Virus record (IMG/VR): IMGVR_UViG_3300047388_000152
Span: 1 to 56,483 of that record
From: a virus
Taxonomy: Duplodnaviria > Caudoviricetes
Strand: one strand, 5' to 3'
DNA: 56,483 bases
Part shown: piece by piece, positions 162-16,446 of the stretch
Layout of the letters: each line of letters opens with the position of its first letter
Numbering within the stretch: position 1 is the first letter of the stretch
Made by a program: the position numbers and the translations under genes
The notes under the pieces: model-generated
What the model was told of the DNA's origin: nothing
What the model saw: only the letters and a program-made list of their open reading frames with translations
Databases searched by the model: none

Positions 162-353
162 ATGGCACACAAAGTAAGAGACGAGATTGTAAGGCTCCGC
201 AAGTTGCTAGACGAAACGGAGGACCCACTGACCATTTCTGCATTACAAGGGGCTATCTATGCCCTGAAGTGGCAAGAATCGCTAGGCGGTGCGGCTAAGG
301 AACCTATCCTTGCTCCGTCCAAAGAAATCGCAAAAACAACAAAAACAAGTTGA
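162..353 (+). CDS. Hypothetical protein
   Basis: 63-aa ORF, co-oriented with the left arm. Confidence 0.6.
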   Translation: MAHKVRDEIVRLRKLLDETEDPLTISALQGAIYALKWQESLGGAAKEPILAPSKEIAKTTKTS

Positions 354-378
354 CCTTTCTATTCTATCCGAATAGACT
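350..378 (+). promoter_or_regulatory. Sigma70-like promoter TTGACC-17-TAGACT
   Basis: Canonical spacing; ends ~6 nt before the RNA stem. Confidence 0.7.
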
Positions 379-384
379 TGTAGG

Positions 385-515
385 TGATTAGGTCAGCATA
401 CAGATTGAAAAGTTTTTCCGCGAAATCGCTCACACAGAGCGTAGAGACCGAGACTGGACTACTGTGTGTCTGACCTAATCATTCAGACCTAAAGCCGTTC
501 GGTCTCTTTTCTTTT
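385..515 (+). ncRNA. Putative structured RNA, copy 1 of 3
   Basis: 385-403 pairs with 462-481; inner hairpin CGCTC/GAGCG; AGAGACCGAGAC (443-454) pairs with GTTCGGTCTCT (497-507), followed by a T-tract. Confidence 0.75.
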
Positions 516-550
516 CCGACCGCCCAAAGTCTGACCGTTCTTCTATAGGT

Positions 551-733
551 ATGAGTCCGGCAAAATCAATCCTATGGCGTGTAACAGGGATTAACTTGTT
601 CACCCACCCTCAGACGCTGAAGTATCTCAGCGGTTACTTGTTTAGATGTCAGGCCATCTTTAATGACACGACAAGGAGCGTTCTCCACAGGGAGTTTCAC
701 CGTGCAATCGCTAAAACTCGAATATGGCCTTAG
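551..733 (+). CDS. Hypothetical protein
   Basis: 60-aa ORF downstream of the RNA element. Confidence 0.4.
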   Translation: MSPAKSILWRVTGINLFTHPQTLKYLSGYLFRCQAIFNDTTRSVLHREFHRAIAKTRIWP

Positions 734-781
734 GGGTGACCGTGCAATGCTGATAAACTCACGGGGTACAGGAGGAATATT

Positions 782-1342
782 ATGTACGCAGACCCTGAGC
801 GTCAGAAAGCGTTTAGACGGGAGTATTTCCAAACCAAGACTAAACAATTAAGAGCAGACCGCAAGGCACAAGGCATATGCCGTTGTGGACGTGGAGAATG
901 TCTGCCTAGTCGTGCTTATTGCTTACAATGTAAGGCGTATGAACCAGTCATACGCAAGCGTAAAATAGCACGACGAAGAGAGATGGGACTGTGTCTTCGA
1001 TGCGGAAGCCGACCTCAAGAGAAGGATGTCACTTGTGACCGATGTAAGGTCAAAGACCGACTGAAACGTACCGCAGAACGACGACAAGTCTTAGACCATT
1101 ACGGCACAATGTGTGCTTGCTGTGGGGAAAAACAGGCACAGTTCCTGTGCATCGACCACGTCAATAATGATGGCAATGTACACCGAAAAACGTTGCAAAC
1201 AAACAACATTTATCGGTGGCTCCTACGCAATGACTTTCCAGTGGGATTCCAAGTGCTGTGCTTTAACTGCAATATGGCTAAAGCCATTTATGGCAAATGT
1301 CCACATCAAGCGGCACCATCACCACCCGGAACACGGTCATAA
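782..1342 (+). CDS. HNH-type endonuclease with Cys-rich zinc-finger repeats
   Basis: CACCGE...LCIDHVNNDG...QVLCFNCNMAK..CPH; SD GGAGG upstream. Confidence 0.85.
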   Translation: MYADPERQKAFRREYFQTKTKQLRADRKAQGICRCGRGECLPSRAYCLQCKAYEPVIRKRKIARRREMGLCLRCGSRPQEKDVTCDRCKVKDRLKRTAERRQVLDHYGTMCACCGEKQAQFLCIDHVNNDGNVHRKTLQTNNIYRWLLRNDFPVGFQVLCFNCNMAKAIYGKCPHQAAPSPPGTRS

Positions 1343-1540
1343 TTGCCAAGTTAGTTAAAAACGTTCTGTAAATCGGTAAGGTGAAAGGTCAGAGCAGTCA
1401 CCCGTCAACAAGTTCAGTAAATTCTGTAAGGGAACCTAAAGGGTACATCAAGCCCACACAGGCCGGAGCTATAGGAGAGCAAAGGCAATGGGTGGTTGTG
1501 TTCTAAATTCAGTAGTAACTAAGGAGAAGAATCTAAGGAT

Positions 1541-2656
1541 ATGGGAAAAGTACAAAATATCTATGGGTCAGTAACGCGGTCTGAGGCGATGAAAACTATC
1601 ATCGCTCTAAGCAAGGGCGATGAATGGGGTTCGCCCCTTACGGTTTTAGTTACGGGGCCAATGGGTTCATCAAAGAGTGCGATGTTCCATGACTTGCAAC
1701 GTGCTTTGCCCACACACGATGGGTACTTTCACGATTGCACAACAAACGAAGCTGGTGACCTCCTGATGCCGTCTGTCACAGACAAAGACGCTGAGGTGCC
1801 TAAACTCCGCTTCGCTCCAGCAGAGACGCTAGGATTCACTAACAAGCGTCCTGTATTCATCTTTGCGGACGAACTGGACAAGGCTCCTAAAGCCATTCAG
1901 AACGTCTTTAACCGCATTGCTCACGAAGGGGCTTTGGGCAACTATGTATTGCCTCCGGGTTCGTTTATGGTGGCTACGTCCAACAGAACTGAGGAAGGTC
2001 TGGGGGATAATCGGCAGGCTAACATGCGTGACCGCACGGTGAGCATCGACATTAAGATGCCTGACTCTAAGGAGTGGATAGAGAACTACGCTCTAGGAGC
2101 TAACGTGCATCCTACCGTGCTAACTACGGTCTCAGAGATACCGGATATGCTGGCAGACTTTAGGGACGTAACAAAGGCGGCAGACAATCCCTACATCCAT
2201 CATCCGTCCGAGAATCGAGAACACGGCACAAGCTGTCGGTCGCTGGCTAACGCTTCTAAGGCTCTGTATCGTCTCGAAAAGGACGGACTCTCGGCAAGCG
2301 TCATAGCACACGTTCTTACAGGCATAATCGGTGCACCAGCGGCGGCAGAGATGATTTCAATTCACACTCTGCACAATGAGCTCCCTCGATATGACGAAGT
2401 TATCAAGAGTCCTGAAAAGGCTAAGATTCCTTCAAAGTCAGCGGCTATGTGCCTGTTCGTCTATACAGCTATACAGAGGGCAGAGCCTAAAGATGTAGCT
2501 TCACTAATGAAGTACGTGCAGCGTCTACCGTTGGAGCAACAGGCGATGTTTTTCTTTGGTGTTATCCGCAGTCCTAAAGCGGCACAGCTTACGCCTGAGA
2601 ATGGAATGATAGATTGGGGACGCACAAACTCGTGGCTTACCCGCAATGATAGTTAG
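1541..2656 (+). CDS. MoxR-like AAA+ ATPase
   Basis: Walker A-like GPMGSSKS, Walker B FIFADE, ATSNR sensor; paired with a downstream VWA gene. Confidence 0.85.
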   Translation: MGKVQNIYGSVTRSEAMKTIIALSKGDEWGSPLTVLVTGPMGSSKSAMFHDLQRALPTHDGYFHDCTTNEAGDLLMPSVTDKDAEVPKLRFAPAETLGFTNKRPVFIFADELDKAPKAIQNVFNRIAHEGALGNYVLPPGSFMVATSNRTEEGLGDNRQANMRDRTVSIDIKMPDSKEWIENYALGANVHPTVLTTVSEIPDMLADFRDVTKAADNPYIHHPSENREHGTSCRSLANASKALYRLEKDGLSASVIAHVLTGIIGAPAAAEMISIHTLHNELPRYDEVIKSPEKAKIPSKSAAMCLFVYTAIQRAEPKDVASLMKYVQRLPLEQQAMFFFGVIRSPKAAQLTPENGMIDWGRTNSWLTRNDS

Positions 2657-3381
2657 AGTCCTATTCCCATCTCATCGAACCACTTCGGAGTTTCGCCTTT
2701 CACTTCAAAGCGTGTCTGAAACTTAATCGACTTGCGGTAGTTATCGCCCGGAGGGAGATATTGGAGATTGTTCGGAACGTGCAAGCCTGAAACCATCTTG
2801 CCGTGCAAGGGGATGATGTGGTCAACCGTCATCCCCTCTGGGCAATCTCGATAGGTTTGGCGTATCTTTGTGAGGTCTGACCAAGGGGGAATACGTTGTT
2901 TCTTCGCGGCTTCACGCTTGCGTTGAATGTGCAGATTGTAGGCTTTGGTATTCGCCTCTCCGTGAATCGTGTGGCAATTTCGCTGTACTTCACGAGCCAA
3001 GCATCCACAGGAACGTGTCGCAACTTTACCAGTGAGATTGCCGCGTACCACGTAGACAGTGTTGCCGCAGTCACACAAGCACTCCCATTCAGTGCCTTGT
3101 CCGTGGCCATTTACCTGTCCGCGTAGTTTGTGAATCTTAATGGCAATCAGACGGCCAAATCGCTTGCCACCTAAATCGTTTTTGAGCAACGTGGTAGCAA
3201 TCATCTCTTTGGTCTTACATCCACAAGAACGAGAACGTCCATCCGCTATGCAAATAGCAGTCACGTGACGTTCAGTCCCACACTTACAGCGACATAGGGC
3301 TTTATGCTTATTAGATATGGGCGTTTCCAATACAGTCCAGTCGCCAAAAGTCTGCCCTTGCTGTATAACGGGATATTTCAT
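2653..3381 (-). CDS. HNH homing endonuclease
   Basis: CxCxCG...SCGC repeats; VDHIIPL..VSGLHVPNNLQ; antisense to the operon, with its own TGnTATAAT -10 near 3402-3410. Confidence 0.9.
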   Translation of the reverse strand: MKYPVIQQGQTFGDWTVLETPISNKHKALCRCKCGTERHVTAICIADGRSRSCGCKTKEMIATTLLKNDLGGKRFGRLIAIKIHKLRGQVNGHGQGTEWECLCDCGNTVYVVRGNLTGKVATRSCGCLAREVQRNCHTIHGEANTKAYNLHIQRKREAAKKQRIPPWSDLTKIRQTYRDCPEGMTVDHIIPLHGKMVSGLHVPNNLQYLPPGDNYRKSIKFQTRFEVKGETPKWFDEMGIGL

Positions 3382-3431
3382 TAACGCACCAACTAACGGT
3401 TATTATAACATTGAGAGAGTCTTTACAGGAA

Positions 3432-3470
3432 GGCAAAAATCAGAGATGGTTGGTGGCCTCAGACAACTAA
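3432..3470 (+). pseudogene. Orphaned alternative 3' end of the MoxR gene (GKNQRWLVASDN*)
   Basis: Aligns without gaps to the MoxR C-terminus GRTNSWLTRNDS*, with the stop at the same position. Confidence 0.6.
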
Positions 3471-3505
3471 TTTGTAAAGGCTCCCACTTTTACTTTGGAG
3501 AATCT

Positions 3506-3748
3506 ATGAGTGCAAGAGGCGACATTATGCGGCTTATAGGTCGCAAGACTGACCCGGTTAGCATAATCACAACCACCACTTACAAGTACACGGCCTCAAA
3601 CAAGAAAGATATAAAGACCCTCAATGAGGGGAATATACCGCGTGATTTAGGTGTGGCGATACACGTTCTAAGGCTGAACGGGCACACCGTCACAAAGGAG
3701 CGTTGGGACTACGAAGGTGGATTTTCTTTTGATGTAGTGGAGAAATAA
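3506..3748 (+). CDS. Hypothetical protein
   Basis: SD GGAG before ATG 3506; abuts the next gene. Confidence 0.6.
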   Translation: MSARGDIMRLIGRKTDPVSIITTTTYKYTASNKKDIKTLNEGNIPRDLGVAIHVLRLNGHTVTKERWDYEGGFSFDVVEK

Positions 3749-4060
3749 ATGGCAAAAGCAATAACCAAATACAAGGGTTTCAGCTACGAGGACGAATCAC
3801 GGCCTTTGGCAAAGGTGGCTTATATGGACGGATATGCTTTCGGTGACACGTTGTTGGAGGGCGTTCCGTTCAAGTGTGAAGTCACTGACAGTGGTGAATT
3901 GCAAGTCGGATTTGCAGAGCCTACGGGCTTCTACGAACAGGAGCTTAACCAGCCTTTATGGAATGCAAGGGCTTTGAAATACGCGAAGGAAGAGGACGTT
4001 TTCTATGAAAACGCAGAACTGACGGCAGGGGAAGATTTGTACTTAGAAAAGGCAGACTAA
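3749..4060 (+). CDS. Hypothetical protein
   Basis: 103-aa ORF, tightly packed, SD GGAG. Confidence 0.7.
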   Translation: MAKAITKYKGFSYEDESRPLAKVAYMDGYAFGDTLLEGVPFKCEVTDSGELQVGFAEPTGFYEQELNQPLWNARALKYAKEEDVFYENAELTAGEDLYLEKAD

Positions 4061-4064
4061 AGAT

Positions 4065-5339
4065 ATGGCAAAAGCAGTACAGCAAAAACTAACCGCAGAA
4101 CAAAGAGTCACCAAAGCACTGGTTTGGATACTCAGGTCGCCCAACTTCCTAAGTATGTACCCCACGGCCTGTATCGGGGAGACTCGCGTAATCCACGATG
4201 AAAAGGCGTGGCCGTCACCGATGAAAACCGGATACACGGACGGTCGCAATATCCGGTTTTGGCACGAGTTTGTTGATAACTCATCAGACGAGACTTTACG
4301 AGCGGCAATCCTTCACGAAACAGGTCACATTCTCGCACGTCACATACTGAATTATCAGCACCTGTGGCATCAGAATGCACAGCTTGCCAACATCGCGGCA
4401 GACCATTGGGTGAACAATATGCTCAAGGCTCACAACGACACGGGCATAGCCATTGGTGCGGATTGGTTCTGTGACCCTAAGTACGCCGACAGTTCCAAGT
4501 GGGACGTTACAAAGATTTTCAAAGACCTTCAAAAGAACGGCAAAGGACAAGGCAAGTGCAACGGTAACTGCCAACAGGGTAAAGGCTCAGGACGGCCTAA
4601 CGGCCAATGTACCTGCCCACAAGGGTTCGATGAACACGGCTGGGAAGATGGAAATTCCCTAAGTCCTGAGGAACAAAAGCAACTGGCACAGGACGTAGAC
4701 CAAGCTATTAGGCAAGGACAAAGACTCGCGGGGCAGATGAATGGCAACAAGGATTTAGCCATAAATGAACTACTAAAGGTACGGACAGATTACAAGGAAG
4801 CATTCCGAGAGTGGATGCGTACCTACACTCGTGGTGGAGATGACTTGTCGTGGGCTAGAGTCTCACGAAGGGCTATAGCGAACGGTGAACTAATGCCCGG
4901 AAGTATCTCTGAAGCTATGGGTGAACTGGCAATTTGCATAGACACTTCGGGCAGTATCTCGCAAGCAGAGCTAACGGTGTTTCTGTCTAACGTGGCTCTC
5001 ATCACTCAGACCATTAAGCCTCTAAAGATTCGGCTAATTTACTGGGACACGGTTTGCCACGGTATAGAAACCTATGAGCCGCACCAATATGACACAATAG
5101 CTCAGAGCACTAAGGCTAAGGGTGGTGGTGGTACACAGGTAGAATGCGTACCGCCTTACCTAGAGGCTCAGGGCATCAAGCCAGAGGTGATACTGGTTCT
5201 GTCAGACGGTTATTTGTTCTCACCACCACCGGATTTTCCTGCTCCTACGCTGTGGGCGATTCTTCCGGGCAATGAGGGCTTTACTGCACCCCTACCACAA
5301 AAAACAATTCACTTGCCGGATGGGTGGAGTGAGGATTGA
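4065..5339 (+). CDS. HExxH metallopeptidase-like plus VWA domain protein (DUF2201-like)
   Basis: TDG...LHETGH, NIAAD, MIDAS IDTSGS, GGGGT, LSDG. Confidence 0.9.
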   Translation: MAKAVQQKLTAEQRVTKALVWILRSPNFLSMYPTACIGETRVIHDEKAWPSPMKTGYTDGRNIRFWHEFVDNSSDETLRAAILHETGHILARHILNYQHLWHQNAQLANIAADHWVNNMLKAHNDTGIAIGADWFCDPKYADSSKWDVTKIFKDLQKNGKGQGKCNGNCQQGKGSGRPNGQCTCPQGFDEHGWEDGNSLSPEEQKQLAQDVDQAIRQGQRLAGQMNGNKDLAINELLKVRTDYKEAFREWMRTYTRGGDDLSWARVSRRAIANGELMPGSISEAMGELAICIDTSGSISQAELTVFLSNVALITQTIKPLKIRLIYWDTVCHGIETYEPHQYDTIAQSTKAKGGGGTQVECVPPYLEAQGIKPEVILVLSDGYLFSPPPDFPAPTLWAILPGNEGFTAPLPQKTIHLPDGWSED

Positions 5340-5345
5340 TGATGG

Positions 5346-5615
5346 ATGATGACTGACTACCTAAAGGGGCAGAGGAAGTGGCTGCGTAAGACTGGAGTCA
5401 CAGTAGGAAGTCCCGTGATGGTGATTGCAGAGCCTACGGGAACAATCGAGGATGAATCGTGGGGGTTGCCACTGGAGTATGTAGGGAAGGCGACGACTGT
5501 CAAACAGATAGACTCTGACCGTATCCGTATCAATCATCCTACGAGTGAGAGTCCCCTAGTTTGGTGGGGGGCTCCTTTCTACTGTCTAGTACCTGTAGAG
5601 GGGTCAAGATACTGA
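5346..5615 (+). CDS. Small protein, paralogue family A (SH3-like?)
   Basis: YLKGQxKW...YVGK...PFYCL, shared with 6237 and 6563. Confidence 0.75.
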   Translation: MMTDYLKGQRKWLRKTGVTVGSPVMVIAEPTGTIEDESWGLPLEYVGKATTVKQIDSDRIRINHPTSESPLVWWGAPFYCLVPVEGSRY

Positions 5616-5628
5616 CAAGATGTCAGCG
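5602..5628 (+). repeat. Bipartite motif copy 2 (1-nt insertion)
   Basis: GGTCAAGATA-CTGACA-AGA-TGTCAG-CG. Confidence 0.8.
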
Positions 5629-5633
5629 AAACC

Positions 5634-5930
5634 GTGAAAAACATACAGTCTGGATGGTGTAAGGGTGATGCTCTAGTCGCACGTGCTCAAGGTTGGGAAT
5701 TACGGGTAGACCACGAAGGACGCCTTTGGGCTGATGACGTATCCAGAGGCATTAGATTTAATGGAAAGGCATTCCAAACCGTCCTAGAGACTGCAATGAC
5801 AGGGGATGCAGCAGCCTACAAAGCTTTGCGTTGGCTGGCAAAGAACAATCCGTCCTACAGGAAGTGGAAAAAGACTGTACGGGCTATCTATAAGCAATTC
5901 CATCGTGTCAAAAGCACAGAAAGGACATAA
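5634..5930 (+). CDS. Small protein, paralogue family B
   Basis: SxWC...AMTG...KAL..LA...Y..W..TV..Y, shared with 5935. Confidence 0.7.
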   Translation: MKNIQSGWCKGDALVARAQGWELRVDHEGRLWADDVSRGIRFNGKAFQTVLETAMTGDAAAYKALRWLAKNNPSYRKWKKTVRAIYKQFHRVKSTERT

Positions 5931-5934
5931 TTTG

Positions 5935-6240
5935 ATGGCTACACGACACTTCAGGTCTAAATGGTGTTCCCTTGGTGCGTTCTTGTGTCGAGACCCTTCA
6001 CATTGGAAGTGGGAGGAAGTACGAGATAGAAACGGGAACGTGACGCCGTTAGTGTGGGATTGGCAAGAACATTGTGTGGCTCTAGCCCATCGGCAGACAA
6101 TGGATTCGTTGGTCGACCAGGCTATGACGGGCAATGTTCAGTACCTAAAGGCTCTGGGCGTACTAGCTTGGCAAAGAGAGGACTATAAAGAGTGGAGGCC
6201 GACAGTTTTGAGCCTCTATAGGTCGGTGATGGAGAAATGA
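5935..6240 (+). CDS. Small protein, paralogue family B
   Basis: Same motif as 5634; start placed at ATG 5935. Confidence 0.7.
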   Translation: MATRHFRSKWCSLGAFLCRDPSHWKWEEVRDRNGNVTPLVWDWQEHCVALAHRQTMDSLVDQAMTGNVQYLKALGVLAWQREDYKEWRPTVLSLYRSVMEK

Positions 6241-6560
6241 AAGACGACTACGTAAAACAGCAATCTAAGTGGTTGGAAAATACCGGATTGCAGGTTGGTG
6301 ATAAGTGCATTGTCGCGTTTTCACCGTCTTCTTTTGAGGAAGGCGAGAATTGGCACGGGTGGACGTGTGGGTGGGCTGAAGAGATGAACGATTGCGTAGG
6401 GAAGGTGGGGGTGATTCAAGCTATCGGGACGGCATACTATCACGCTGAGACGCCATTAAAGAACGGCATAGGGCTTGTGGTTCCGGGTGATGGACATCCT
6501 CAAGACGCTAAGGCGTGGTTCTATCCTTTCTTTTGTTTAATTCCTGCTGGAGATGAATAA
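6237..6560 (+). CDS. Small protein, paralogue family A
   Basis: YVKQQSKW...CVGKVG...PFFCL. Confidence 0.75.
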   Translation: MKDDYVKQQSKWLENTGLQVGDKCIVAFSPSSFEEGENWHGWTCGWAEEMNDCVGKVGVIQAIGTAYYHAETPLKNGIGLVVPGDGHPQDAKAWFYPFFCLIPAGDE

Positions 6561-6562
6561 CT

Positions 6563-6838
6563 ATGACAAACGAAGACAAGGCAACGAAACTTTATCTTAA
6601 GGGCCAGACCAAGTGGTGCAAGAACGCCAACATTGAGGTTGGAACAAAGGTCACCATCTTACAGGCCGCTGAATCGAATCAAGCAGGATGGCCGTCTCCC
6701 TTTCCTGAGTTTATGTTAAATTACGTGGGTAAAACAGGCACAGTGGTATGGCCAGATGACGTTGGTGGGGTGATGGTGGAGATGGAGGACGGGATTACTG
6801 TCCACTTTCCCTTCTTTATTTTATGCAAGGCTGAGTGA
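6563..6838 (+). CDS. Small protein, paralogue family A
   Basis: YLKGQTKW...YVGKTG...PFFIL. Confidence 0.75.
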   Translation: MTNEDKATKLYLKGQTKWCKNANIEVGTKVTILQAAESNQAGWPSPFPEFMLNYVGKTGTVVWPDDVGGVMVEMEDGITVHFPFFILCKAE

Positions 6839-7053
6839 TGCTCAAACGCAGTCCTGACAATCTCTACGTCCTCTGGTCTCGCTACCTTAAAGGACAGAGC
6901 AAGCTATGGAGTCCAACAAGAAAGCGTATGGCTAAAGGATTGCCGTTGAATACGGTGGTAGGGCAAAGACTCCATTTCCGTAAACATAACCGTATCGACA
7001 CTTGGGCGTTGCGGATTTGTCCATATGGCACAGACCCTAATCAAGCAAAGTAA
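6835..7053 (+). CDS. Small protein, family C (RSPx[GN]xY...LNxxV)
   Basis: KRSPDNLYVLW...PLNTVV. Confidence 0.65.
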   Translation: MMLKRSPDNLYVLWSRYLKGQSKLWSPTRKRMAKGLPLNTVVGQRLHFRKHNRIDTWALRICPYGTDPNQAK

Positions 7054-7779
7054 TCAGATTGTAATGTCGCGGTACGTTTTATAATGACGAATGTCAAACA
7101 AGGTAGAAAGCGACACTTTGAAATGTTGTGCTAATTCTCGATACGTTAAATGCGAGTGCCGTATATGCCAGACATCTTCTTTAGTTAATACACGGTACTG
7201 GGGACGATGTTCATGAATGCGACTGGCAATATGTTCTTTGGAGTGTTTTGAACCGCGATTTGCTTCTGCCGCCGCAAGAATCGCCGCAGTCGGGATGTGG
7301 CCCAGTCTGGCAATTCGTGACTTCTCGACCACGGCAGGATGCTGTTTTCTACCAGTTAAGGCTTTACGTATTTTCTCAATGGCCTGCGGGGTCAGTTTAC
7401 GCCCCTTTCTCGCTCTAGACATTTTTTGTCGAGTGAGCATGGTGGGCTTCCACCCTAAACAGCCCTCTCCTCCTAAGGTGGCATTCGTAAGCGGTGCTCC
7501 AATAGAACGGTAATACGCAATCCAATTCGGCTCCGCGTCGATATAACCGCGAGCGTCACAACCGCTCTCTAAAATTACCATCAGCGGACGATGTCCCGTT
7601 CGGAGTAAACCCTGAATCCAATGCGCTTTATAGCTACGAACTCTCAAGGCTCCATTACAATGATCGTTTAACCGCTTATAAGGATTACCACTCCATCCGA
7701 TATACCGCACCCGCTTGGTCATCGGGTCAAGTAACGCATAGATATGCCATTTATATTGCATATCTCTAGTATAACTCAT
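7054..7779 (-). CDS. GIY-YIG homing endonuclease with NUMOD3-like repeats and C-terminal HTH
   Basis: HIYAL..RYIG..RL..H, E..WI, LTN.T.GGEG. Confidence 0.85.
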   Translation of the reverse strand: MSYTRDMQYKWHIYALLDPMTKRVRYIGWSGNPYKRLNDHCNGALRVRSYKAHWIQGLLRTGHRPLMVILESGCDARGYIDAEPNWIAYYRSIGAPLTNATLGGEGCLGWKPTMLTRQKMSRARKGRKLTPQAIEKIRKALTGRKQHPAVVEKSRIARLGHIPTAAILAAAEANRGSKHSKEHIASRIHEHRPQYRVLTKEDVWHIRHSHLTYRELAQHFKVSLSTLFDIRHYKTYRDITI

Positions 7780-7792
7780 ATAAAAACCCTTT

Positions 7793-8048: not shown

Positions 8049-8050
8049 AC

Positions 8051-8079
8051 TTGACATCCGTAGAGACTTTTTCCAAACT
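8051..8079 (+). promoter_or_regulatory. Promoter-like TTGACA-17-CAAACT
   Basis: Same position relative to the RNA as in copies 1 and 3; weak -10. Confidence 0.55.
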
Positions 8080-8084
8080 GTTAG

Positions 8085-8218
8085 TGGGTAAGCTACGAAC
8101 AATAGGCTTGAAAAGTTTGTGCAGATAAATCCCTTCGGGGATTTTTAGAGGCCGAGACCGTGCTTGTTGTTCTGAGCTTACCCGTTCAGACCAAATGGTT
8201 CGGTCTCTTTTTCGTTTT
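8085..8218 (+). ncRNA. Putative structured RNA, copy 2 of 3
   Basis: 8086-8107 pairs with 8162-8183; AAATCCC-TTCG-GGGATTT hairpin; AGAGGCCGAGACC pairs with GGTTCGGTCTCT, followed by a T-tract. Confidence 0.75.
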
Positions 8219-8594: not shown

Positions 8595-8595
8595 G

Positions 8596-8621: not shown

Positions 8622-8625
8622 AATT

Positions 8626-8862: not shown

Positions 8863-8899
8863 ACTTGTCCGCAGGGGAGCACCGTGTATCATACTTAGT

Positions 8900-9379
8900 A
8901 TGAAAGAAGTGCCCCTCACAAAAGGACAGGTAATGTTTGTAGACGATGCGGATTATGCTCTCGCAACGACACGACGATGGTGTGCCGTGTGGGACGAACA
9001 TTCCCAGTCCTACCGAGCCAAAGGTAATATAAAGACATCTGGGGGATATAAACAGGTCACTTTCCATCGTTGGTTATTAAATGCCCCGCCAGAGTCACAA
9101 GTTGACCATCGAGACGGCAATCCCCTCAACAATCAACGCGAGAATTTGCGGCTTGCCACGCACGGACAGAATCAACAAAACAAGAAACGTCAACGTAATA
9201 ACCTGTCAGGTTTCAAGGGTGTGTGTTACGTTACCGCCAAGCGCAAATACAAGGCGTATATCTCCAAAGATGGAAAGCGTTACAACTTGGGCTATTTTGG
9301 CACCGCTCAAGAGGCGGCAGATGCTTACGCTGAAATGGCAAAGGAACTTCATCAGGAGTTTGCCTGCCTTGACCGCTAA
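8900..9379 (+). CDS. HNH-AP2 homing endonuclease
   Basis: VDHRDGNPLNNQRENLR plus AP2 SGFKGV...LGYFGTAQEAA. Confidence 0.92.
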   Translation: MKEVPLTKGQVMFVDDADYALATTRRWCAVWDEHSQSYRAKGNIKTSGGYKQVTFHRWLLNAPPESQVDHRDGNPLNNQRENLRLATHGQNQQNKKRQRNNLSGFKGVCYVTAKRKYKAYISKDGKRYNLGYFGTAQEAADAYAEMAKELHQEFACLDR

Positions 9380-9440
9380 CGTTCGGCCACTGAATTAGAA
9401 CCAATTCGGCTTGGCTAGTTCGTCGGAGTATTGTGTCTAA

Positions 9441-9656: not shown

Positions 9657-9681
9657 AGTTACAGGATTCGCCCTGATTGAG

Positions 9682-9710
9682 TTGTTTCTTTTTTACCCTT
9701 TGTGTAAAAT
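9682..9710 (+). promoter_or_regulatory. Promoter TTGTTT-17-TAAAAT
   Basis: Upstream of the ParB-like gene. Confidence 0.5.
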
Positions 9711-9722
9711 AGTAGGTAATAA

Positions 9723-10553
9723 ATGAATTTTCTAACAGTCGATGAAGTCATAATCAATCCCGCCTTTGACGCTTTACTGCACCCTCTACAAACTGACGAA
9801 CTGCGTGTTCTCAAGGAATCTATGCAAGCCGAAGGCTGGGCAGAGGAACATCCGATGTGTGTCTGGGGTTCCACTTGCGTCGATGGGCACAACCGCTACC
9901 GGATAGCTCAAGAATTGGGCATCACACAGATACCCGTTCAACCTAAGTTTTTTGAAAGTAACAATGAATGTCGAATCTGGATGTTCAGACAACAGATTGG
10001 ACGGCGTAACACGAGTGCTGAACAGCGTAGCCTCTACGTGGGACAGTTGTTCTTAGCCCTCAAAGACCAAGTAGGCACAGCACAGGCCGTCCGAGAGATT
10101 TCAAAGCAAGAGAACCGCTCAGAACGCCAAATATACAGGGATGGCGACCTGTCCAAAGTCTTTGATGGTGCTACCTCAGAACTTCAACAGAAATTCCTAA
10201 GTGGAGAACTAACGGCTAAAGAGTTGACCGAGACCCTTAAACCTCTAGTAGCTCCTGTACCGATAGAGAAACTAAGCAAAGAGGAACAACAAGAAAGACA
10301 CAATCAAGCTTTCCCCGCTCTCTGTCACAAAGTAAGTGAGAGGACGATAATCGGGGTAAGGAACATGAAGGCTCTGTGTGGAGACATAGACCTAGTGTTC
10401 AAGAACCAAGGATTAAACCTAGCTGATTACGCACCTACCATTGCTCAGTATTGGATGGCATTTAGTGAAGTGATGGACGAAGCACAGGGACTTGCTCGAC
10501 TTGTGTATCAGGATGGAGTTTATAAGATTCCTGAGTTACCAGAGGATTTATGA
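9723..10553 (+). CDS. ParB-like N-terminal domain plus HTH protein
   Basis: LKESM..EG..P..V..VDGHNRY..A; QIGRRN; HTH-like SERQIYRD. Confidence 0.8.
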   Translation: MNFLTVDEVIINPAFDALLHPLQTDELRVLKESMQAEGWAEEHPMCVWGSTCVDGHNRYRIAQELGITQIPVQPKFFESNNECRIWMFRQQIGRRNTSAEQRSLYVGQLFLALKDQVGTAQAVREISKQENRSERQIYRDGDLSKVFDGATSELQQKFLSGELTAKELTETLKPLVAPVPIEKLSKEEQQERHNQAFPALCHKVSERTIIGVRNMKALCGDIDLVFKNQGLNLADYAPTIAQYWMAFSEVMDEAQGLARLVYQDGVYKIPELPEDL

Positions 10554-10852
10554 CCAGAGAGGGAGAGGAATTGGTTGAGAAGGCGCGGGTGTTTTTGAAG
10601 CAGCGAAATAAGGTCGAGTACGGCACACCAAGTGTGAATTACACGAGTGCTAATGCGGCAGAGATGGCTGACTTCGCCCAACAGGTCGCAGACGAGAGGG
10701 TGAGGGGCATAGGTGTCAAGGAAACTTGTGAGAACGGGCATGATTTTATAAAACTGCCTAACCATCCCACGAAAAATGGATTGGCACGGTGTCCATACTG
10801 CTTAAGCATCGGTTTTGACAAACTGTTGGAGTCCGGCAAGAGGCAGGGATGA
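10550..10852 (+). CDS. Hypothetical protein (C..GH...CPYC)
   Basis: ATGA-type overlaps with neighbours. Confidence 0.65.
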   Translation: MTREGEELVEKARVFLKQRNKVEYGTPSVNYTSANAAEMADFAQQVADERVRGIGVKETCENGHDFIKLPNHPTKNGLARCPYCLSIGFDKLLESGKRQG

Positions 10853-11289
10853 CGAGCCTCGCAAAAAAGTTTTGGGATAAGCGGCAAGGAGCAACTATGA
10901 ACGAACGGGATCAAATCAACGAGCGAATCGCGGAGTGGCTTGGGCTGTGCTGGCACGAGTTCAGGGTTAAGCCGTTGCCGGTGCTTGGTGTGCCAACGTG
11001 CATCCATTGCGGCGAAACGACCAGCCGCATTTCCCTTGAGCACAGTGACCAGAATCCAGATTTCAGCACCTTCCCCGGAATGGAGATACTGCTGGCCGGG
11101 CTGCGGCTAAAGGGATGGAATGTGAAACTTTTCTCACATTCAACCGATCCCCAGTCCGCATCCATTTTCGTGCCTACGGACAAATACAAGACCAGTTTTG
11201 CAAAGGCTGACACACTCCCTGACGCTCTGTGCGAGGCAACTTTGAAACTTATCGAATCGGAGGCTAACGATGCCGGATCAGAAAACTAG
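10849..11289 (+). CDS. Hypothetical phage protein (ABA-sandwich-like)
   Basis: INERIAEWLG...PDFST...TLPDALCEA pattern. Confidence 0.6.
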   Translation: MTSLAKKFWDKRQGATMNERDQINERIAEWLGLCWHEFRVKPLPVLGVPTCIHCGETTSRISLEHSDQNPDFSTFPGMEILLAGLRLKGWNVKLFSHSTDPQSASIFVPTDKYKTSFAKADTLPDALCEATLKLIESEANDAGSEN

Positions 11290-11797
11290 AGAGGCGATAA
11301 GGAATTTGCCAGTGAAGCGTGACATCTTCTCCGGAGTATCATCTGCCGACCTCAAGGACTTGCTTGATACGCTCACCGACCTAGAGGCTGAGAGGGATAG
11401 GTACAAGGTGGCGTTGAACTTCTATGTGCATACGTGCGACCAGGAAAAGGAGATTCGAGACAAGCAGATCGCCCTTCTTGTGGCTGAGTGTGATAAGCGC
11501 GGCGTCAAAAAGATGGACTTCGATGAGTACGTAGTCGGACAACAGACCATCAAGGCCTTGAATCAACCCGTGACACTCAGTATTCGAGCGGGGGTGGAGT
11601 TCTCGATTTACAACAACGCAATCCCCAAGTTCACATTGGAGTTCAGGTGCAAGGTCGAGACCGAGAACGGCGGATGGAGCGGATACATCGTACCCGTCGA
11701 GAAGTTCGACACCCTAGACGAGATGTTTAAACGAGCGGCGGAAGCGATGGTTAACCCTTTTGTTCTTACCCCGACCGAGCAAAGTGAAGCAGTCTGA
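11270..11797 (+). CDS. Hypothetical protein
   Basis: 175-aa ORF, SD GGAGG. Confidence 0.65.
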   Translation: MPDQKTREAIRNLPVKRDIFSGVSSADLKDLLDTLTDLEAERDRYKVALNFYVHTCDQEKEIRDKQIALLVAECDKRGVKKMDFDEYVVGQQTIKALNQPVTLSIRAGVEFSIYNNAIPKFTLEFRCKVETENGGWSGYIVPVEKFDTLDEMFKRAAEAMVNPFVLTPTEQSEAV

Positions 11798-11804
11798 GAA
11801 AATT

Positions 11805-12038
11805 ATGAGTAATAAATACACCATTACCGACGATATACCAATTCCCGAACCTCAACAGAGAACACACATAGGACTTACTGCCACTCTCCGGTCAATGGAG
11901 GTGGGACAGAGTATTGTTCTGCCTAAAGATTCAAGACCGAATGTTCTGAGCATTGCACAGGCGGCGAAACTGAAGATACGGACGCGCTCGGAGAGTGTGG
12001 ACACTATTAGGGTGTGGAGAGTGAAGGATGATACGTAA
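11805..12038 (+). CDS. Small DNA-binding-like protein
   Basis: IPIP...MEVGQS...IRVWRV family pattern. Confidence 0.7.
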   Translation: MSNKYTITDDIPIPEPQQRTHIGLTATLRSMEVGQSIVLPKDSRPNVLSIAQAAKLKIRTRSESVDTIRVWRVKDDT

Positions 12039-12162
12039 GGCCATCTGTATTTTATTCCATCGTTGGTATCGAGATAAGGACGGTAAGCCCGGTGCTTATT
12101 GCCCGAAGTGTAATTTAGTGTGGACTTGGGGAAATTGTAAGGAGAAAAATGCAGACAAGTAA
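12028..12162 (+). CDS. Small Cys/His protein (MIRKAICILFH...CPKC)
   Basis: 44-aa ORF that fills the gap; below the ORF-track cutoff. Confidence 0.5.
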   Translation: MIRKAICILFHRWYRDKDGKPGAYCPKCNLVWTWGNCKEKNADK

Positions 12163-12853
12163 AATTCAGCATATTGGAGAGATTAGCTCTTTCAATACAG
12201 ACAATGGATTACTCTATTCCGTACCTCTACGGTTAGAAGACGGGTCAGAAGGTTTGACCTTTAAGAAGTCGGCAGACGCCTTGAGCGTCGGTCAGGAGAT
12301 TACCTACACCATCGAAGAAAAGACCAGTAGACAGGGTAAGACCTACAACAAGATTACTGAGGTAAAAGAGGATACTCGGCGTGGCTCTAGTGGTGGCGGT
12401 AAGTCCTACTCCGACCCAAAGACAATGATTTTGGCGTTCAGTAAGGATGTAATCGTGGCCGCTATGTCTAACGGTCTTATCGAACCAGACGCCGACTACT
12501 TTCAAGCAACAATCGACGGTGCTGACAGGTTTATGCAGTGGTACGAAGGTCACAGTGGTAAACAGAACGTGGAGTTTACTGCTGATTCAATGTCAGTAGC
12601 TCGTGATGTACCTCAACAGAGACAAGAATCTGTAGAACGTGCGTTTACGGGTGACCCTGTTGCCAAGAACCTTGGAGATATGATTACGTCCAAACAGATA
12701 GGACTCGTCCGTGCTAAGGCTCGTGAACACAATATCGACGCTGAAGCTCTGTGTTCAGAGATGTTTGGTTGTGATGTAGAGGATTTAAGTAAAGAGTCGG
12801 CAAGTAGTTTTATAGACAGACTGCTGGAGGTGGCTAAAAGTGGTGGAAGATAA
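12149..12853 (+). CDS. Putative ssDNA-binding/recombination protein
   Basis: OB-like N-terminus; C-terminal ITSKQ...LSKESASSFID motif. Confidence 0.5.
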   Translation: MQTSKIQHIGEISSFNTDNGLLYSVPLRLEDGSEGLTFKKSADALSVGQEITYTIEEKTSRQGKTYNKITEVKEDTRRGSSGGGKSYSDPKTMILAFSKDVIVAAMSNGLIEPDADYFQATIDGADRFMQWYEGHSGKQNVEFTADSMSVARDVPQQRQESVERAFTGDPVAKNLGDMITSKQIGLVRAKAREHNIDAEALCSEMFGCDVEDLSKESASSFIDRLLEVAKSGGR

Positions 12854-13223
12854 GTACGCATATCTCGATGACACGCCGGAGTCCATCTACAAAGAACTCA
12901 AAGACCTAGAAACCTCTCTGTTAGACGCCTCTCAGGGCGTTAGAGATAAAGGCCGACAGGCCGTCAATGCCAAAGCGGTCTATGATGCCGCCAAACACAC
13001 CGAGTTGGTGCATCTCTACGCTGACGAAGCGGACACTCCCGGTCTTAAACGAACGGAACTGCAACGAGCAGTCTTATACCGTACAAAACACGCCACGGAG
13101 CGTCTGGCGTGGGTATTGGCCGACAGGGAGTATGAGGTAGCCAGAGACTACGTTAAGAGCTTACAGGCGGTTCTAATGAGCATCCAGACACGTTCTAGGT
13201 TGCTACGAAAAGATTTCGACTAA
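12840..13223 (+). CDS. Hypothetical helical protein (UvsY-like?)
   Basis: Coiled-coil character in the recombination region. Confidence 0.5.
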   Translation: MVEDKYAYLDDTPESIYKELKDLETSLLDASQGVRDKGRQAVNAKAVYDAAKHTELVHLYADEADTPGLKRTELQRAVLYRTKHATERLAWVLADREYEVARDYVKSLQAVLMSIQTRSRLLRKDFD

Positions 13224-13261
13224 ATTTCCCAAAACCAAAGCAGAAAGGAGAATGACATTAT

Positions 13262-14011
13262 ATGTCTAAAGTAGAACCACGTACTGTTACCAGTACTTCT
13301 GACTACAATCTATTCACTCGCCTTCCGGGTAATCGTGACATCGACCCGATTCACGTTAATAACCTAGTGAAAGCGATGGAGAAAGAGTACGTCTTTGACC
13401 CAATCTCCGTTAATGAGAGCTTCCAAGTTCTCGACGGACAACATCGCCTAGAAGCCCATAAACGCCTAGGCATCCCCGTGCCTTACTACTGGGATACCGT
13501 AGGCGATTTGGAGACCGTTCAAAAGCTCAACAACAGCCAAAAGAACTGGACTAATGAGGATTATACCAAGTCTTTCATCGAACGTGGATTCAAGGATTAT
13601 GAAATCTACAAATCGTTCAAAGAGGCTTATGGTCTGCCTCACGTTATTTGCATCATCCTTCTCTCTGGAGAACATCGTGGTCGCAATAAGATGTTCAAGA
13701 CTGGGAATTTTACAGTGCGGAATCTCAAGTTGGCACAGCAGAAAGCCACCATCCTCACTCAACTGGAACCGTACTTCTCTCATTGGAAAGAAGCGTCGTT
13801 CTTACGAGCTATGAACAAGGCTCTCATTAAAGAAGGATTTGACGTTCAGACCTTTATCCACAGAGCGGCGGCTAATAGCACAATGTTTGTTCCGTGTACG
13901 TCAGTAGACCAGTATCTTCTCTTGATTGAGAACGTCTACAACTTCGGTGCGGCTACCAAGACCGGAATTAGATTCGCGGCTGACGATGTGAACTCACCTT
14001 GGAAAGACTAG
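13262..14011 (+). CDS. ParB/Srx-like domain protein
   Basis: GNRDI..HV..L..M..PI.VN..DGQHRL. Confidence 0.8.
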   Translation: MSKVEPRTVTSTSDYNLFTRLPGNRDIDPIHVNNLVKAMEKEYVFDPISVNESFQVLDGQHRLEAHKRLGIPVPYYWDTVGDLETVQKLNNSQKNWTNEDYTKSFIERGFKDYEIYKSFKEAYGLPHVICIILLSGEHRGRNKMFKTGNFTVRNLKLAQQKATILTQLEPYFSHWKEASFLRAMNKALIKEGFDVQTFIHRAAANSTMFVPCTSVDQYLLLIENVYNFGAATKTGIRFAADDVNSPWKD

Positions 14012-14021
14012 GAGATAGACA

Positions 14022-14276
14022 ATGACACCTCAAGCATTACTTAAACTCGCGCAGGCCGAGAAAGAGCCTGAACCGTCTAGTAAGTCCGTGTGCTGGCCAT
14101 ATCTCGAATCTGCCCACATTCTCCGTCAAAAAAGGTGGATGTGGAAAGACATCAGTTCGTGGATGACGGAGCACGCGGGTATTACACTCAAAGACATCAA
14201 AGCGTGGCAACGACACCACCACCGTTGGGTTGCGGTGAATAACATTCCGCCAATTAAAAGGGAGAAACTGAAATGA
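14022..14276 (+). CDS. Small HTH-like protein, family D
   Basis: Y...ILR.K.W.W..I..W...GI. Confidence 0.7.
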   Translation: MTPQALLKLAQAEKEPEPSSKSVCWPYLESAHILRQKRWMWKDISSWMTEHAGITLKDIKAWQRHHHRWVAVNNIPPIKREKLK

Positions 14277-14545
14277 GTCCTGAAGAATTACTTGAACTAG
14301 CAAGAGGGGTGGTGGCCAAACCACCCAAACTCAAAGGAATGATGCGTTACGCACGAGCGATGGAAGTCCTGCGTAGGAAAGGTTTTACGTGGGCGTCCAT
14401 TGCAGAATGGTTTAACGAACAAGGCATTCCGGTCAAACACCCTCAATCCCTAGCGGCTACTCTTAGGAAATGGGGCAAGACTCCTGACTACTTGGAGTTC
14501 TGTGCTCAGGAAGACAAAGAGAGCGAACTGAATGTCCAGAGCTAA
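14273..14545 (+). CDS. Small HTH-like protein, family D
   Basis: Y...VLRRKGFTWASIAEWF..QGI. Confidence 0.7.
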   Translation: MSPEELLELARGVVAKPPKLKGMMRYARAMEVLRRKGFTWASIAEWFNEQGIPVKHPQSLAATLRKWGKTPDYLEFCAQEDKESELNVQS

Positions 14546-14729
14546 GGTAGGACTGGCTGACACCTACATAGACACCATCATTTTCCTTCGAGAGAGTGGG
14601 TACAAATGGCCGCAAGTCCAAGAATGGTTCGCCAAGCAGGGATTAGTGTTTAGTGTTGGTACACTTCAACAAGCACATCAGAGACACTTTGGTTCAACAT
14701 ACGTGAAATATGAGCGGAATAAGGTCTAG
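14532..14729 (+). CDS. Small HTH-like protein, family D
   Basis: Y...FLRESGYKWPQVQEWF..QGL. Confidence 0.7.
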   Translation: MSRAKVGLADTYIDTIIFLRESGYKWPQVQEWFAKQGLVFSVGTLQQAHQRHFGSTYVKYERNKV

Positions 14730-15051
14730 AAGGAAAGGGCATCTGCTAGAACGCGAGATGGCAAAGCGTTTCAGAGACTTAGGTTTCGATGCTACAACTT
14801 CTCGCTTTTCTTCGCGTGAGGAAGATAATAAGTGTGTTGACCTTTGTGGGGTAGACCCGTTTGCCGTTCAATGTAAAAGCACGGCGACTATCAACTGTCA
14901 TACGGAGCTAGAGAAGATTGACGGCGGTTCTCGCTACAAAGTTCTTGTCCATAAGCGTAAGCAACGTGGGTGTATTGTGGCGTTACCGTTAGATGACTTT
15001 ATGGAGATTGTTGAGCTTTTGGTGGCACACGGTTGCATCAAAACGAATTGA
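14710..15051 (+). CDS. Hjc-like Holliday-junction resolvase (PD-(D/E)xK)
   Basis: SRRKG..ERE..F..LG...VDL..VQCK. Confidence 0.8.
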   Translation: MSGIRSRRKGHLLEREMAKRFRDLGFDATTSRFSSREEDNKCVDLCGVDPFAVQCKSTATINCHTELEKIDGGSRYKVLVHKRKQRGCIVALPLDDFMEIVELLVAHGCIKTN

Positions 15052-15091
15052 ACGGTGGGATTGTTACCTTAGATTCTCTCCCGCTGTTCAT

Positions 15092-15125
15092 AAGGGCATC
15101 CGGCACAACGGGTGTCCTTTTCTTA
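15092..15125 (+). terminator. Rho-independent terminator
   Basis: AAGGGCATCCG/CGGGTGTCCTT stem followed by TTCTT; a second hairpin at 15049-15090 precedes it. Confidence 0.7.
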
Positions 15126-15127
15126 TT

Positions 15128-15328
15128 ATGATACGAGCAATTCCAACGTGGGTACTGACGAATATCAGTACGCCGTTCCTACCCAAGACGCATCCGTGGA
15201 AAGGTCGGTGGTTCACGTTATCAGACTGGGCTATACATCAAACATCGCTCTGTAAAGAGTTTGATTATGTATTTTGGTGTAGTGCTCTATGTGGTTGTGT
15301 TTTCTTGTATTTAATAACTCGCGGTTAA
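15128..15328 (+). CDS. Hypothetical membrane protein
   Basis: Hydrophobic C-terminus. Confidence 0.45.
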   Translation: MIRAIPTWVLTNISTPFLPKTHPWKGRWFTLSDWAIHQTSLCKEFDYVFWCSALCGCVFLYLITRG

Positions 15329-15433
15329 AGTGACTTATGAACCACGTAACAAGAGGATGTCTGGTGATGCTGGCGTTAGCCTTTGGGTTCTTACTCGTCC
15401 TAGTGGTGATGATGCTGATTCTGGCTAAGAACT

Positions 15434-15459
15434 AGTCAAGCACTGCCATCGTGTCAGCG
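15434..15459 (+). repeat. Bipartite motif copy 4
   Basis: AGTCAAGCA-CTGCCA-TCG-TGTCAG-CG directly before ATG 15460 of a 42-aa ORF. Confidence 0.8.
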
Positions 15460-15597
15460 ATGCTCAATACTGCCGTTGAACGTCTCTTAGAACGCGACAT
15501 CGACCTTCCTTTACGCCAAAAGGTGATGAAGGTTCTGATAGAGGTGCGAGAGTTTGAGTCGCCGTCCATTAGTCTTGGGAAGAGATAGAGGAGAGGA

Positions 15598-16257
15598 ATG
15601 AAAATACTAAGCGGAATTAGACCATCGGGACGATTACATCTGGGGAATTTCATCGGTTCAATACTCCCCGCGATGAAATATGACGCGGAAGTATTGATAG
15701 CTGAGTATCATTCCATCGACGGAGATGCGGAGGATTTGATAGCTCAACTGTCCCCATTCTTTCCTGCATCGCGTATTAAGCGTCAATCTGAGCATTTCAA
15801 CGCTAAACTCTATTTCAATCTACTGAGCTTGTCTCCTGATGGTTTGCTACGACATATGCCTCAGTATAAGAGTCAGGGAAAAACTGCCGATATGTTCGTC
15901 TACCCAGTGTTGATGGCTCACGATTTAGTGGGCTATGACAGGGTGATTGTCGGTGAAGACCAGAGGCCTCATATCGAGTTTGCACGAGATATTTTGCATA
16001 AAATCAACGAAGTGTGTCCTGAACCTATTTACGAGGGCGGAAAGGTGATGGACTTGCGAGACCCGACTCGAAAAATGAGTAAGTCTCTGCCGGAAAGTTG
16101 TTTCTTTCTAGGCGATGAACCAAACAAGATTATGAAAGCAGTGACAACTCCCGCAGGGCGAAAGAACCTTGAATTTATTGCAGATGCTCTCAACGTGGAG
16201 TATCCCTACGGAGATAATAAATCTCTCAAAGAGGCAATCATCGAGAAGCTGCCGTAA
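15598..16257 (+). CDS. trpS: Minimal tryptophanyl-tRNA synthetase-like protein
   Basis: SGIRPSG, HLGN (HIGH), YPVLMAHD, GEDQ, KMSKS; only 219 aa. Confidence 0.85.
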   Translation: MKILSGIRPSGRLHLGNFIGSILPAMKYDAEVLIAEYHSIDGDAEDLIAQLSPFFPASRIKRQSEHFNAKLYFNLLSLSPDGLLRHMPQYKSQGKTADMFVYPVLMAHDLVGYDRVIVGEDQRPHIEFARDILHKINEVCPEPIYEGGKVMDLRDPTRKMSKSLPESCFFLGDEPNKIMKAVTTPAGRKNLEFIADALNVEYPYGDNKSLKEAIIEKLP

Positions 16258-16276
16258 ATATTTCAAAAGATAGGGG

Positions 16277-16305
16277 TTGACTTTTCCGTTGAGGGTGGCG
16301 AGAAT
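16277..16305 (+). promoter_or_regulatory. Promoter-like TTGACT-17-GAGAAT
   Basis: Precedes RNA copy 3. Confidence 0.55.
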
Positions 16306-16311
16306 AGTAAC

Positions 16312-16446
16312 TGGCACGAACAGAATGGCTTTCTAGAGCATCACAATTTTAGTAAAAGTCCATAGAACCGAAAGGTGTCTATGGCAGAGACCGAGACCTT
16401 TAGGAGCCGTTCGTGCCGAATTGCTTTTCTTGGTCTCTTTTTTTTT
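16312..16446 (+). ncRNA. Putative structured RNA, copy 3 of 3
   Basis: GGCACGAA..TGGCTTTCTAGAG pairs with CTTTAGGAGCCG-TTCGTGCC; CCATAGAACC-GAAA-GGTGTCTATGG hairpin; AGAGACCGAGA pairs with TCTTGGTCTCT, followed by a T-run. Confidence 0.75.

Follow-up and report, generated by a model that had tools for sequence, protein, structure and literature searches.

What role does an RNA element play when a phage carries it three times, each time directly behind a promoter? We addressed this for IMG/VR virus record IMGVR_UViG_3300047388_000152 (Duplodnaviria; Caudoviricetes), analyzed over its positions 1 to 56,483 and here called the window. An earlier note, made from the DNA letters alone, had described one structured RNA behind three TTGAC-N17-(–10) promoters. 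We found the same layout on the + strand at 350–516 (copy 1), 8051–8218 (copy 2) and 16277–16447 (copy 3). The shared order is promoter, 5′ strand of a long outer helix (P1), A/U-rich linker, tetraloop-type hairpin (P2), a box of sequence AGAGRCCGAGAC, 3′ strand of P1, a second linker (J4), the box partner TYGGTCTCT, and a U-tract. The element is ~130 nucleotides (nt) long, with a P1 of 18–22 base pairs (bp) and a J4 of 12–18 nt; coordinates of its parts were taken from a constrained fold. The joint pattern box-N(20–50)-GGTCTCTTTT occurred three times on the forward strand and never on the reverse strand of the window, and was absent from a backwards-read control. Folds of the whole element had z-scores of –4.2, –4.0 and –2.7 against shuffles for copies 1, 2 and 3, respectively.

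Pattern scans brought in further members. A scan of viral contigs gave one true relative, L004:2758–2886, and a metagenome scan gave a second, present as an identical sequence on two contigs (L006:3658–3532, – strand, and L005:311–437). The family analyzed here thus consists of five distinct sequences: copies 1–3, L004 and L006. MAFFT alignments misalign P1, and the alignment was built through covariance models instead. A first model, made from the L006 sequence alone with a hand-set structure, recovered L004 (expectation value E 1e-6), copy 3 (7e-5), copy 2 (4e-3) and copy 1 (0.9). A second model (R2), built from four members, returned exactly the five members from 74 kb of sequence (E between 1e-25 and 9e-5); there were no other hits at E ≤ 1. 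In the family alignment, 97.4% of the cells were paired and 21 of 33 pairs showed changes on both sides: 15 of 18 in P1, all six in P2 and none of nine in the box helix. In 500 shuffles, none of the five alignment measures attained its observed value, and sliding the partner strand by 1–3 columns left 38–46% of cells paired. This alignment has five rows and was fitted to the structure, with the inner half of P1 misplaced in copies 1 and 2. A test free of the alignment therefore matters.

Such a test was provided by duplex energies. The sequence of P1 differs between copies yet stays complementary, just as the earlier note had it: each 5′ strand forms a duplex of –28.6 to –33.1 kcal/mol with its own partner, and only –5.7 to –17.4 kcal/mol with the loops of the other four members. 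The cognate value was reached by none of 1000 shuffles in any of the five members. Moreover, the duplex is 5.5–7.7 kcal/mol better on the + than on the – strand in every member, an advantage that stems from the 1–4 G-U pairs that each P1 holds. This points to P1 as a probable RNA helix of the + strand. Its strands lie at 386–403 and 462–480 in copy 1 (–31.1 kcal/mol), the latter between the two arms of the putative terminator; at 8086–8107 and 8162–8183 in copy 2 (9 bp, a 2 × 2 internal loop and 11 bp; –33.1 kcal/mol); and at 16313–16338 and 16398–16417 in copy 3 (9 bp, a 5-nt bulge, 5 bp and 6 bp; –28.6 kcal/mol), where the 3′ strand abuts the box directly. In all five members P1 consists of two halves of ~9–12 bp, separated by a mismatch, a bulge or a small internal loop, and this split helix presumably resembles phage RNase III processing sites.

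The position of P1 relative to the promoter is just as regular. In all five members TTGAC lies 35–37 nt before the first P1 base (36 in copy 1, 35 in copy 2), and in the window copies the 5′ strand begins 6–7 nt after a weak –10 hexamer. Because this distance is fixed, the first base of P1 should coincide with the predicted transcript start or lie only a few bases from it. The promoters of copy 1 (350–378; TTGACC, 17 nt, TAGACT) and copy 3 (16277–16305; TTGACT, 17 nt, GAGAAT) were listed by a consensus scan; that of copy 2 (8051–8079; TTGACA, 17 nt, CAAACT) was absent from the scan output and was read from the sequence. Downstream of the 5′ strand, the A/U-rich linker (J1; 404–426 in copy 1) was unpaired or weakly paired in folds. 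The AAAAGT linker described in the earlier note is present in the three window copies but not in the two outside members. Hairpin P2 appeared in folds at 427–441 in copy 1 (5 bp, 5-nt loop), at 8127–8144 in copy 2 (7 bp, UUCG loop) and at 16360–16384 in copy 3 (long, GAAA loop), with additional support from the family alignment for copies 1 and 2. Four of the five members have UUCG or GAAA as the P2 loop.

The box behaves in the opposite way to P1. Across five copies on three unrelated contigs, the 12-nt box and its partner are invariant save for one R and one Y position, which give G-U pairs; P1, P2 and the linkers have meanwhile all changed. Seven of the nine box-helix pairs are invariant and two vary on one side only. 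Thus, the pairing proposed in the earlier note is complementary and stands directly before a U-tract, but does not covary within the family. Exact pattern matches place the box at 443–454 in copy 1 (AGAGACCGAGAC, the 5′ arm of the candidate terminator stem; –15.6 kcal/mol with its partner), 8147–8158 in copy 2 (AGAGGCCGAGAC) and 16386–16397 in copy 3 (AGAGACCGAGAC). The 3′ arm and U-tract follow at 499–507 and 508–516 in copy 1 (TCGGTCTCT), at 8200–8208 and 8209–8218 in copy 2 (TCGGTCTCT), and at 16430–16438 and 16439–16447 in copy 3 (TTGGTCTCT). In all five members the box helix is GC-rich, 9–11 bp long, has an energy of –14.8 to –17.9 kcal/mol and is followed by 4–9 U. All five therefore carry the stem and U-tract of an intrinsic terminator, and termination is predicted there. 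Intrinsic terminators are usually defined with a hairpin loop of 3–8 nt; the arms here are 33–46 nt apart, well beyond such a short loop.

A nested form with a small apical loop does exist as an alternative fold. Here J4 would pair back onto the P1 3′ strand and lengthen the box helix into a long hairpin; the energy of this nested state lies within about 7 kcal/mol of that of the P1 state in all five members. The P1 3′ strand can pair either with the 5′ strand or with J4, and the terminator stem proper is not shared. The fold-back involves J4 at 481–498 in copy 1 (GTCTGA with TCAGAC), 8184–8199 in copy 2 (7 bp) and 16418–16429 in copy 3. When the loop was folded alone, the fractions of shuffles doing as well were 0.30 (not significant by itself), 0.037 and 0.058 for these copies and 0.16 and 0.046 for the two other members; Fisher's combination of the five is about 0.006. 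In the other state, the strands are interleaved in the order P1 5′, box, P1 3′, box partner in all five members, with a middle loop of 0–7 nt after the box and a third loop of 12–18 nt for 18–22 bp. On paper, this geometry would be compatible with an H-type pseudoknot. A third covarying pairing that the earlier note had suspected (TTGAA/TTCAG in copies 1 and 2, CAATTT/GAATTG in copy 3) did not hold up: across the five members, 21–87% of shuffles reached a run of its length between the two linkers.

The same crossed layout, in unrelated sequence, was found in two other phage lineages, twice on contig L023 and once on L037. For this comparison, 80 viral loci were fetched using the replication protein, none of which has a box or model match; R2 likewise gave nothing in 82 loci (these 80 plus L008 and L091). 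A generic scan asked for an 8-bp stem whose arms are 18–65 nt apart, for a U-tract, and for an ungapped helix joining the loop to the upstream 110 nt. It gave five hits at a score of at least 16 versus none in reversed-sequence controls, and replaced an earlier, more permissive duplex scan that had not discriminated real from reversed sequence. The five hits were L006, window copy 2, L077, and one L023 element on both L023 and L024; L077, despite its good score, proved to be a plain long hairpin followed by a U-tract and was rejected. The second L023 element scored 15.8, and family members range from 12.4 to 20.9 in this ungapped measure. As a negative control, 41 bacterial loci selected solely for a box-like stem gave none at 16 or above and two at 12 or above.

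The two L023 elements share promoter and linker sequence but not the sequences of P1, of the terminator stem and of a third, nested helix. Each of these helices stays complementary in both elements, meaning that here the terminator stem itself covaries between copies. A variant of one of them is on L091. In the L037 element, P1 lies at the predicted start, the linker is A-rich and the stem is again a different one. The linker after P1 tracks the length of P1, with 12–18 nt for 18–22 bp in the window's family and 10 nt for 12 bp in L023. Given that a stem can complete around P1 in L023, the pseudoknot may be the general reading and the switch a feature of the window's family. In several of these promoters, short inverted repeats overlap the –10 region and the spacer (CTATTC..GAATAG at 360–378 in copy 1; GTCCTGA..TCAGGGC at 6990–7010 and 8620–8640 in L023), and these could be operators.

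What lies behind the elements bears on their role. In six of nine elements inspected, the next start codon is 8–31 nt from the U-tract: 13 nt for copy 3 (ATG at 16461), 23 for L004, 8 and 31 for L023-B and L023-A, 9 for L037 and 10 for L091. For copies 1 and 2 the next listed frames begin 35 and 89 nt after the U-tract; a first downstream frame was located for every element but L006. Gaps of 8–31 nt leave no room for a second promoter, so the next genes would need read-through. From this arrangement, the elements are best taken as leaders, and the genes behind them must depend on read-through. Some elements are linked to the replication module. By blastp, the gene right after the L004 element resembles window gene 16760–17650 (1.8e-5), which lies behind copy 3 with a GIY-YIG gene in between. 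L023-B stands before the matching replication gene and then a DnaB helicase gene; the other L023 element precedes a Dam-type methylase gene.

The explanation we favor, with about even confidence, is that the element is a promoter-proximal leader terminator, or attenuator, that gates early and replication operons, with P1 tuning termination; the 5′ end of the transcript would capture the apical part of the terminator, as a switch or as an H-type pseudoknot. It starts from features that are directly observed, namely promoter-like hexamers at a fixed distance, P1, P2, the complementarity of box and partner, the gene layout and the recurrence of the whole. A sigma-70-type promoter would start the transcript, whose first ~20 nt would be the 5′ strand of P1. 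Some 125–135 nt later, the box would pair with TYGGTCTCT ahead of the U-tract to form an intrinsic terminator, most of the stretch between its arms being the P1 3′ strand. Since the 5′ strand is made first, P1 would form before the 3′ arm of the terminator appears. Once formed, it would block the fast local hairpin of P1 3′ strand and J4 that completes a long terminator stem, and the only way left to close the box helix would be an H-type pseudoknot spanning a rigid rod of 20 bp. Such closure would slow or weaken termination and favor read-through. If the 5′ strand were masked or removed, the nested long hairpin would form and a ~130-nt RNA would be released. We infer termination at the site, the direction of the P1 effect and the regulation of this step. 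A recent preprint describes stable RNA structures next to an intrinsic terminator as suppressing termination (bioRxiv 10.64898/2026.06.17.733018).

A number of points weigh against this explanation. Transcript start, transcript end and termination are all predicted. Because P1 is by default the first helix to form, switching would require something to mask the 5′ strand, and we identified no such input. The element sites are missing from the output of the consensus terminator scan, whose loop limit is smaller than the spacing of the arms. Pairing of the box helix rests on complementarity, position and analogy with L023. The alternative hairpin stands out poorly in single members, two of the five having shuffle fractions above 0.1. 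In L023, a P1 that holds the loop still lets the terminator stem form in full, and there P1 is therefore no classical antiterminator. No conserved leader peptide was found in the leaders; some contain short frames, with neither frame nor length conserved. The consensus scan gave no inward antisense promoter. No protein is shared among the three family-carrying contigs by tblastx, and blastp gave only the short replication-protein match. Finally, a purely structural switch does not explain the invariance of the box in three unrelated contigs. That invariance suggests a sequence-specific partner, although none was identified; the leader junctions, for their part, are not conserved among members.

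Other explanations take up some of these points. The element might be a stand-alone, pseudoknotted small RNA of ~130 nt with trans targets among the RNAs or proteins of phage or host, like lambda 6S RNA, StxS, P4 CI or P1 C4, and with read-through as a side effect. The unit is indeed complete from promoter to U-tract, its 5′ end would be in a helix from about +1 so that both ends are tucked in, it has an A/U-rich linker and a U-tail, and a 12-nt box kept in three unrelated contigs is what one expects of a site read by a partner. There is also a precedent in lambda, whose promoter-proximal 6S RNA binds Hfq and has targets, according to a preprint (bioRxiv 10.1101/2024.10.31.621285). But in the finished RNA the conserved box would be paired, and six elements have the next gene 8–31 nt away with no promoter of its own, making read-through required rather than incidental. 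Furthermore, blastn-short of the three elements against the 56 kb gave no complementary site of at least 14 nt elsewhere; outside matches were either 11–13 nt long with full or nearly full identity or 17 nt long with 88% identity, all with E ≥ 0.35. We consider a small RNA of this kind rather unlikely. Of the two interpretations offered in the earlier note, the attenuator or switch fits our data, while an antisense small RNA found no support. A regulated gate could also be more elaborate than the attenuator we favor. P1 could be a programmable address for each operon, with the released leader RNA, or a processed fragment, feeding back in trans on nascent transcripts of its own gate alone and a common host or phage factor reading the box. 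The gates would be orthogonal, because cognate P1 pairing is far stronger than non-cognate pairing, and each early operon would have its own RNA autoregulatory loop, similar to P4 immunity but multiplexed. We hold this to be quite improbable.

If the element were an unregulated operon boundary, the upstream operon's terminator would be fused to the next promoter, P1 would do no more than bury the 5′ end and stabilize the RNA, and termination would be leaky to a fixed degree. Each window element does come directly after the stop codon of a co-oriented gene, 5′-terminal helices are known stabilizers of mRNA, and our analysis identified no regulator. Yet a local 5′ hairpin and a plain terminator would suffice for this, whereas the crossed layout is kept in three sequence-unrelated families and the linker after P1 scales with P1 length; an unregulated boundary is therefore unlikely in our view. 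A loading site for processive antitermination, with polymerase modified through the leader RNA (as at HK022 put or lambda nut) or through promoter DNA (as for lambda Q or AlpA), could account for an invariant box as a factor-binding site, and a promoter-proximal terminator before long operons matches the lambda PR′-tR′ layout. Against this, it leaves P1 without a role, the UUCG and GAAA loops of P2 are structural rather than recognition loops, and no antiterminator family was found when 44 window frames were compared with Pfam, although most of them gave no hit at all and the contig is estimated as 48% complete, which makes this last point a weak one. We judge this very unlikely. A DNA-level element, such as an operator, replication origin or recombination site made of inverted repeats, has in its favor that the repeats adjoin promoters and that the elements are near replication genes. 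But the arms are about 55–60 bp apart and different in sequence in every copy, and each helix has 1–4 G-U pairs and is 5.5–7.7 kcal/mol weaker on the other strand, leaving this barely credible.

How widespread is the family? In viral contigs, L004 was the sole member recovered by the strict or the looser box patterns, next to the chance matches L008 and L009; these two and L007, a hit of the metagenome scan, lack the leader helix and are chance matches or plain terminators. Genome contigs gave none with the strict pattern and 41 loci with the looser one, among which R2 made seven weak matches. Four of the seven were inspected (L133, L121, L137 and L135; L118, L145 and L131 were left out) and rejected as plain nested hairpins without a leader helix. 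Nothing was found by R2 in 13 loci fetched by a tryptophanyl-tRNA-synthetase-like protein of the window, and its ATPase gene gave no relatives as a lookup query. As the earlier note had supposed, no recognized RNA family is involved: Rfam 15, run on the whole window at gathering scores, gave no match, and at E ≤ 5 on the five loci holding all five elements (20,895 nt) it gave five weak matches, none overlapping an element. A separate observation concerns a conserved stretch of ~150 nt in three bacterial assemblies, two labeled Gemmataceae and one Alcaligenaceae (L133:5630–5795; L121:5960–5796, – strand; L135:7210–7375). Its last part is a long nested hairpin, built on a box-like stem and followed by a U-tract; the stretch itself has no Rfam match. 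In L133, it follows a 434-amino-acid frame without a Pfam hit, downstream of a transfer RNA (tRNA) gene.

The window is a record of the linear class with an estimated completeness of 48%, and the sole sequencing run listed for it is a soil metagenome DNA run, which may be its source sample; the listing contains no RNA run. We found no close relative among deposited phages, and no tRNA or transfer-messenger RNA gene in a scan of the window. Small co-oriented genes on the + strand fill 1–27.7 kb, and the remainder has large structural genes on the – strand. The leader copies come directly 3′ of the stop codons of co-oriented genes, at 353, 8048 and 16257; the leader elements would mark early-operon boundaries in a phage whose genes are almost all unannotated. 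Just 5′ of copy 3, 15598–16257 encodes the tryptophanyl-tRNA-synthetase-like protein, truncated at 219 amino acids. It has 149 homologues at E ≤ 1e-5; among the matches listed (best 120 of 149), proteins range from 163 to 279 amino acids and are encoded on metagenome contigs that include long ones.

Many free-standing genes resemble homing endonucleases (HNH_3 with AP2, GIY-YIG, and HNH-like by sequence). They lie at 782–1342, 8900–9379, 16461–16808 and 20054–20572, and on the – strand at 7054–7779 and 2653–3381; two are directly behind leader elements. The GIY-YIG gene at 16461 sits between copy 3 and the replication gene (16760–17650). It looks like an insertion between leader and replication gene, because in L004 and L023 the replication gene follows the leader directly. 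Downstream, a DnaB-type helicase gene (17647–19971) is split by an intein-like insert with a LAGLIDADG domain, the N-terminal domain of the product spanning residues 3–96 and the C-terminal domain residues 558–772. An IS1595-family transposase gene (21974–22933, – strand) lies on the opposite strand within the early region. In addition, an AAA-type ATPase is paired with a protein having DUF2201 metallopeptidase and VWA-like domains (1541–2656 and 4065–5339); PHROGs labels the family of the latter protein HNH endonuclease.

Leader terminators, like attenuators, are a textbook kind of element; this sequence family and its crossed layout seem to be new. What differs here is a 5′ end threaded into the terminator loop, at several operon heads, and re-invented in unrelated families. 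No description of a leader 5′ end pairing into a terminator loop came up in the portions of the literature that full-text searches returned. If P1 does tune termination with no overlap between it and the stem, the element would be a naturally occurring case of structure-based, sequence-independent antitermination, and would offer a ready-made modular part whose address helix can be freely changed.

The closest parallels are partial. The lambda PR′–6S RNA–tR′ unit and StxS likewise combine a constitutive promoter, a terminated transcript of 100–200 nt and an operon reached by read-through, and there too the short RNA may serve a separate function. But lambda has a single unit, which serves late genes and uses the Q protein, whereas here three units stand before early and replication genes, and no Q-family antiterminator gene was found among the 44 window frames scanned with Pfam (contig 48% complete). 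We know of no description of the 5′ end of 6S RNA pairing into the terminator loop. In countertranscript-driven and classical attenuators (pT181 repC, pIP501, trp-type leaders), an early and a later leader segment vie for a middle one, and the winner determines whether replication or biosynthetic genes come to lie behind a terminator. A comparable competition may take place here. Unlike in those attenuators, segment 1 meets only the apical part of the terminator and not its stem, and neither an antisense promoter (in the consensus scan) nor a leader peptide was found. P4 CI and P1 C4 RNAs also work through RNA–RNA pairing in the leader of a replication operon, causing premature termination; they are processed and act on separate target sites (seqA/seqC; a′/b′). 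Here, by contrast, the only complement of each P1 strand lies inside the same element, and there is no similarity in sequence or in Rfam. Finally, in 'tug-of-war' antitermination, a stable RNA structure near the terminator lowers termination without sharing stem sequence, as we propose for P1. There, however, the structure is upstream and stabilized by a ligand, whereas P1 reaches inside the hairpin and shows no conserved ligand-binding core.

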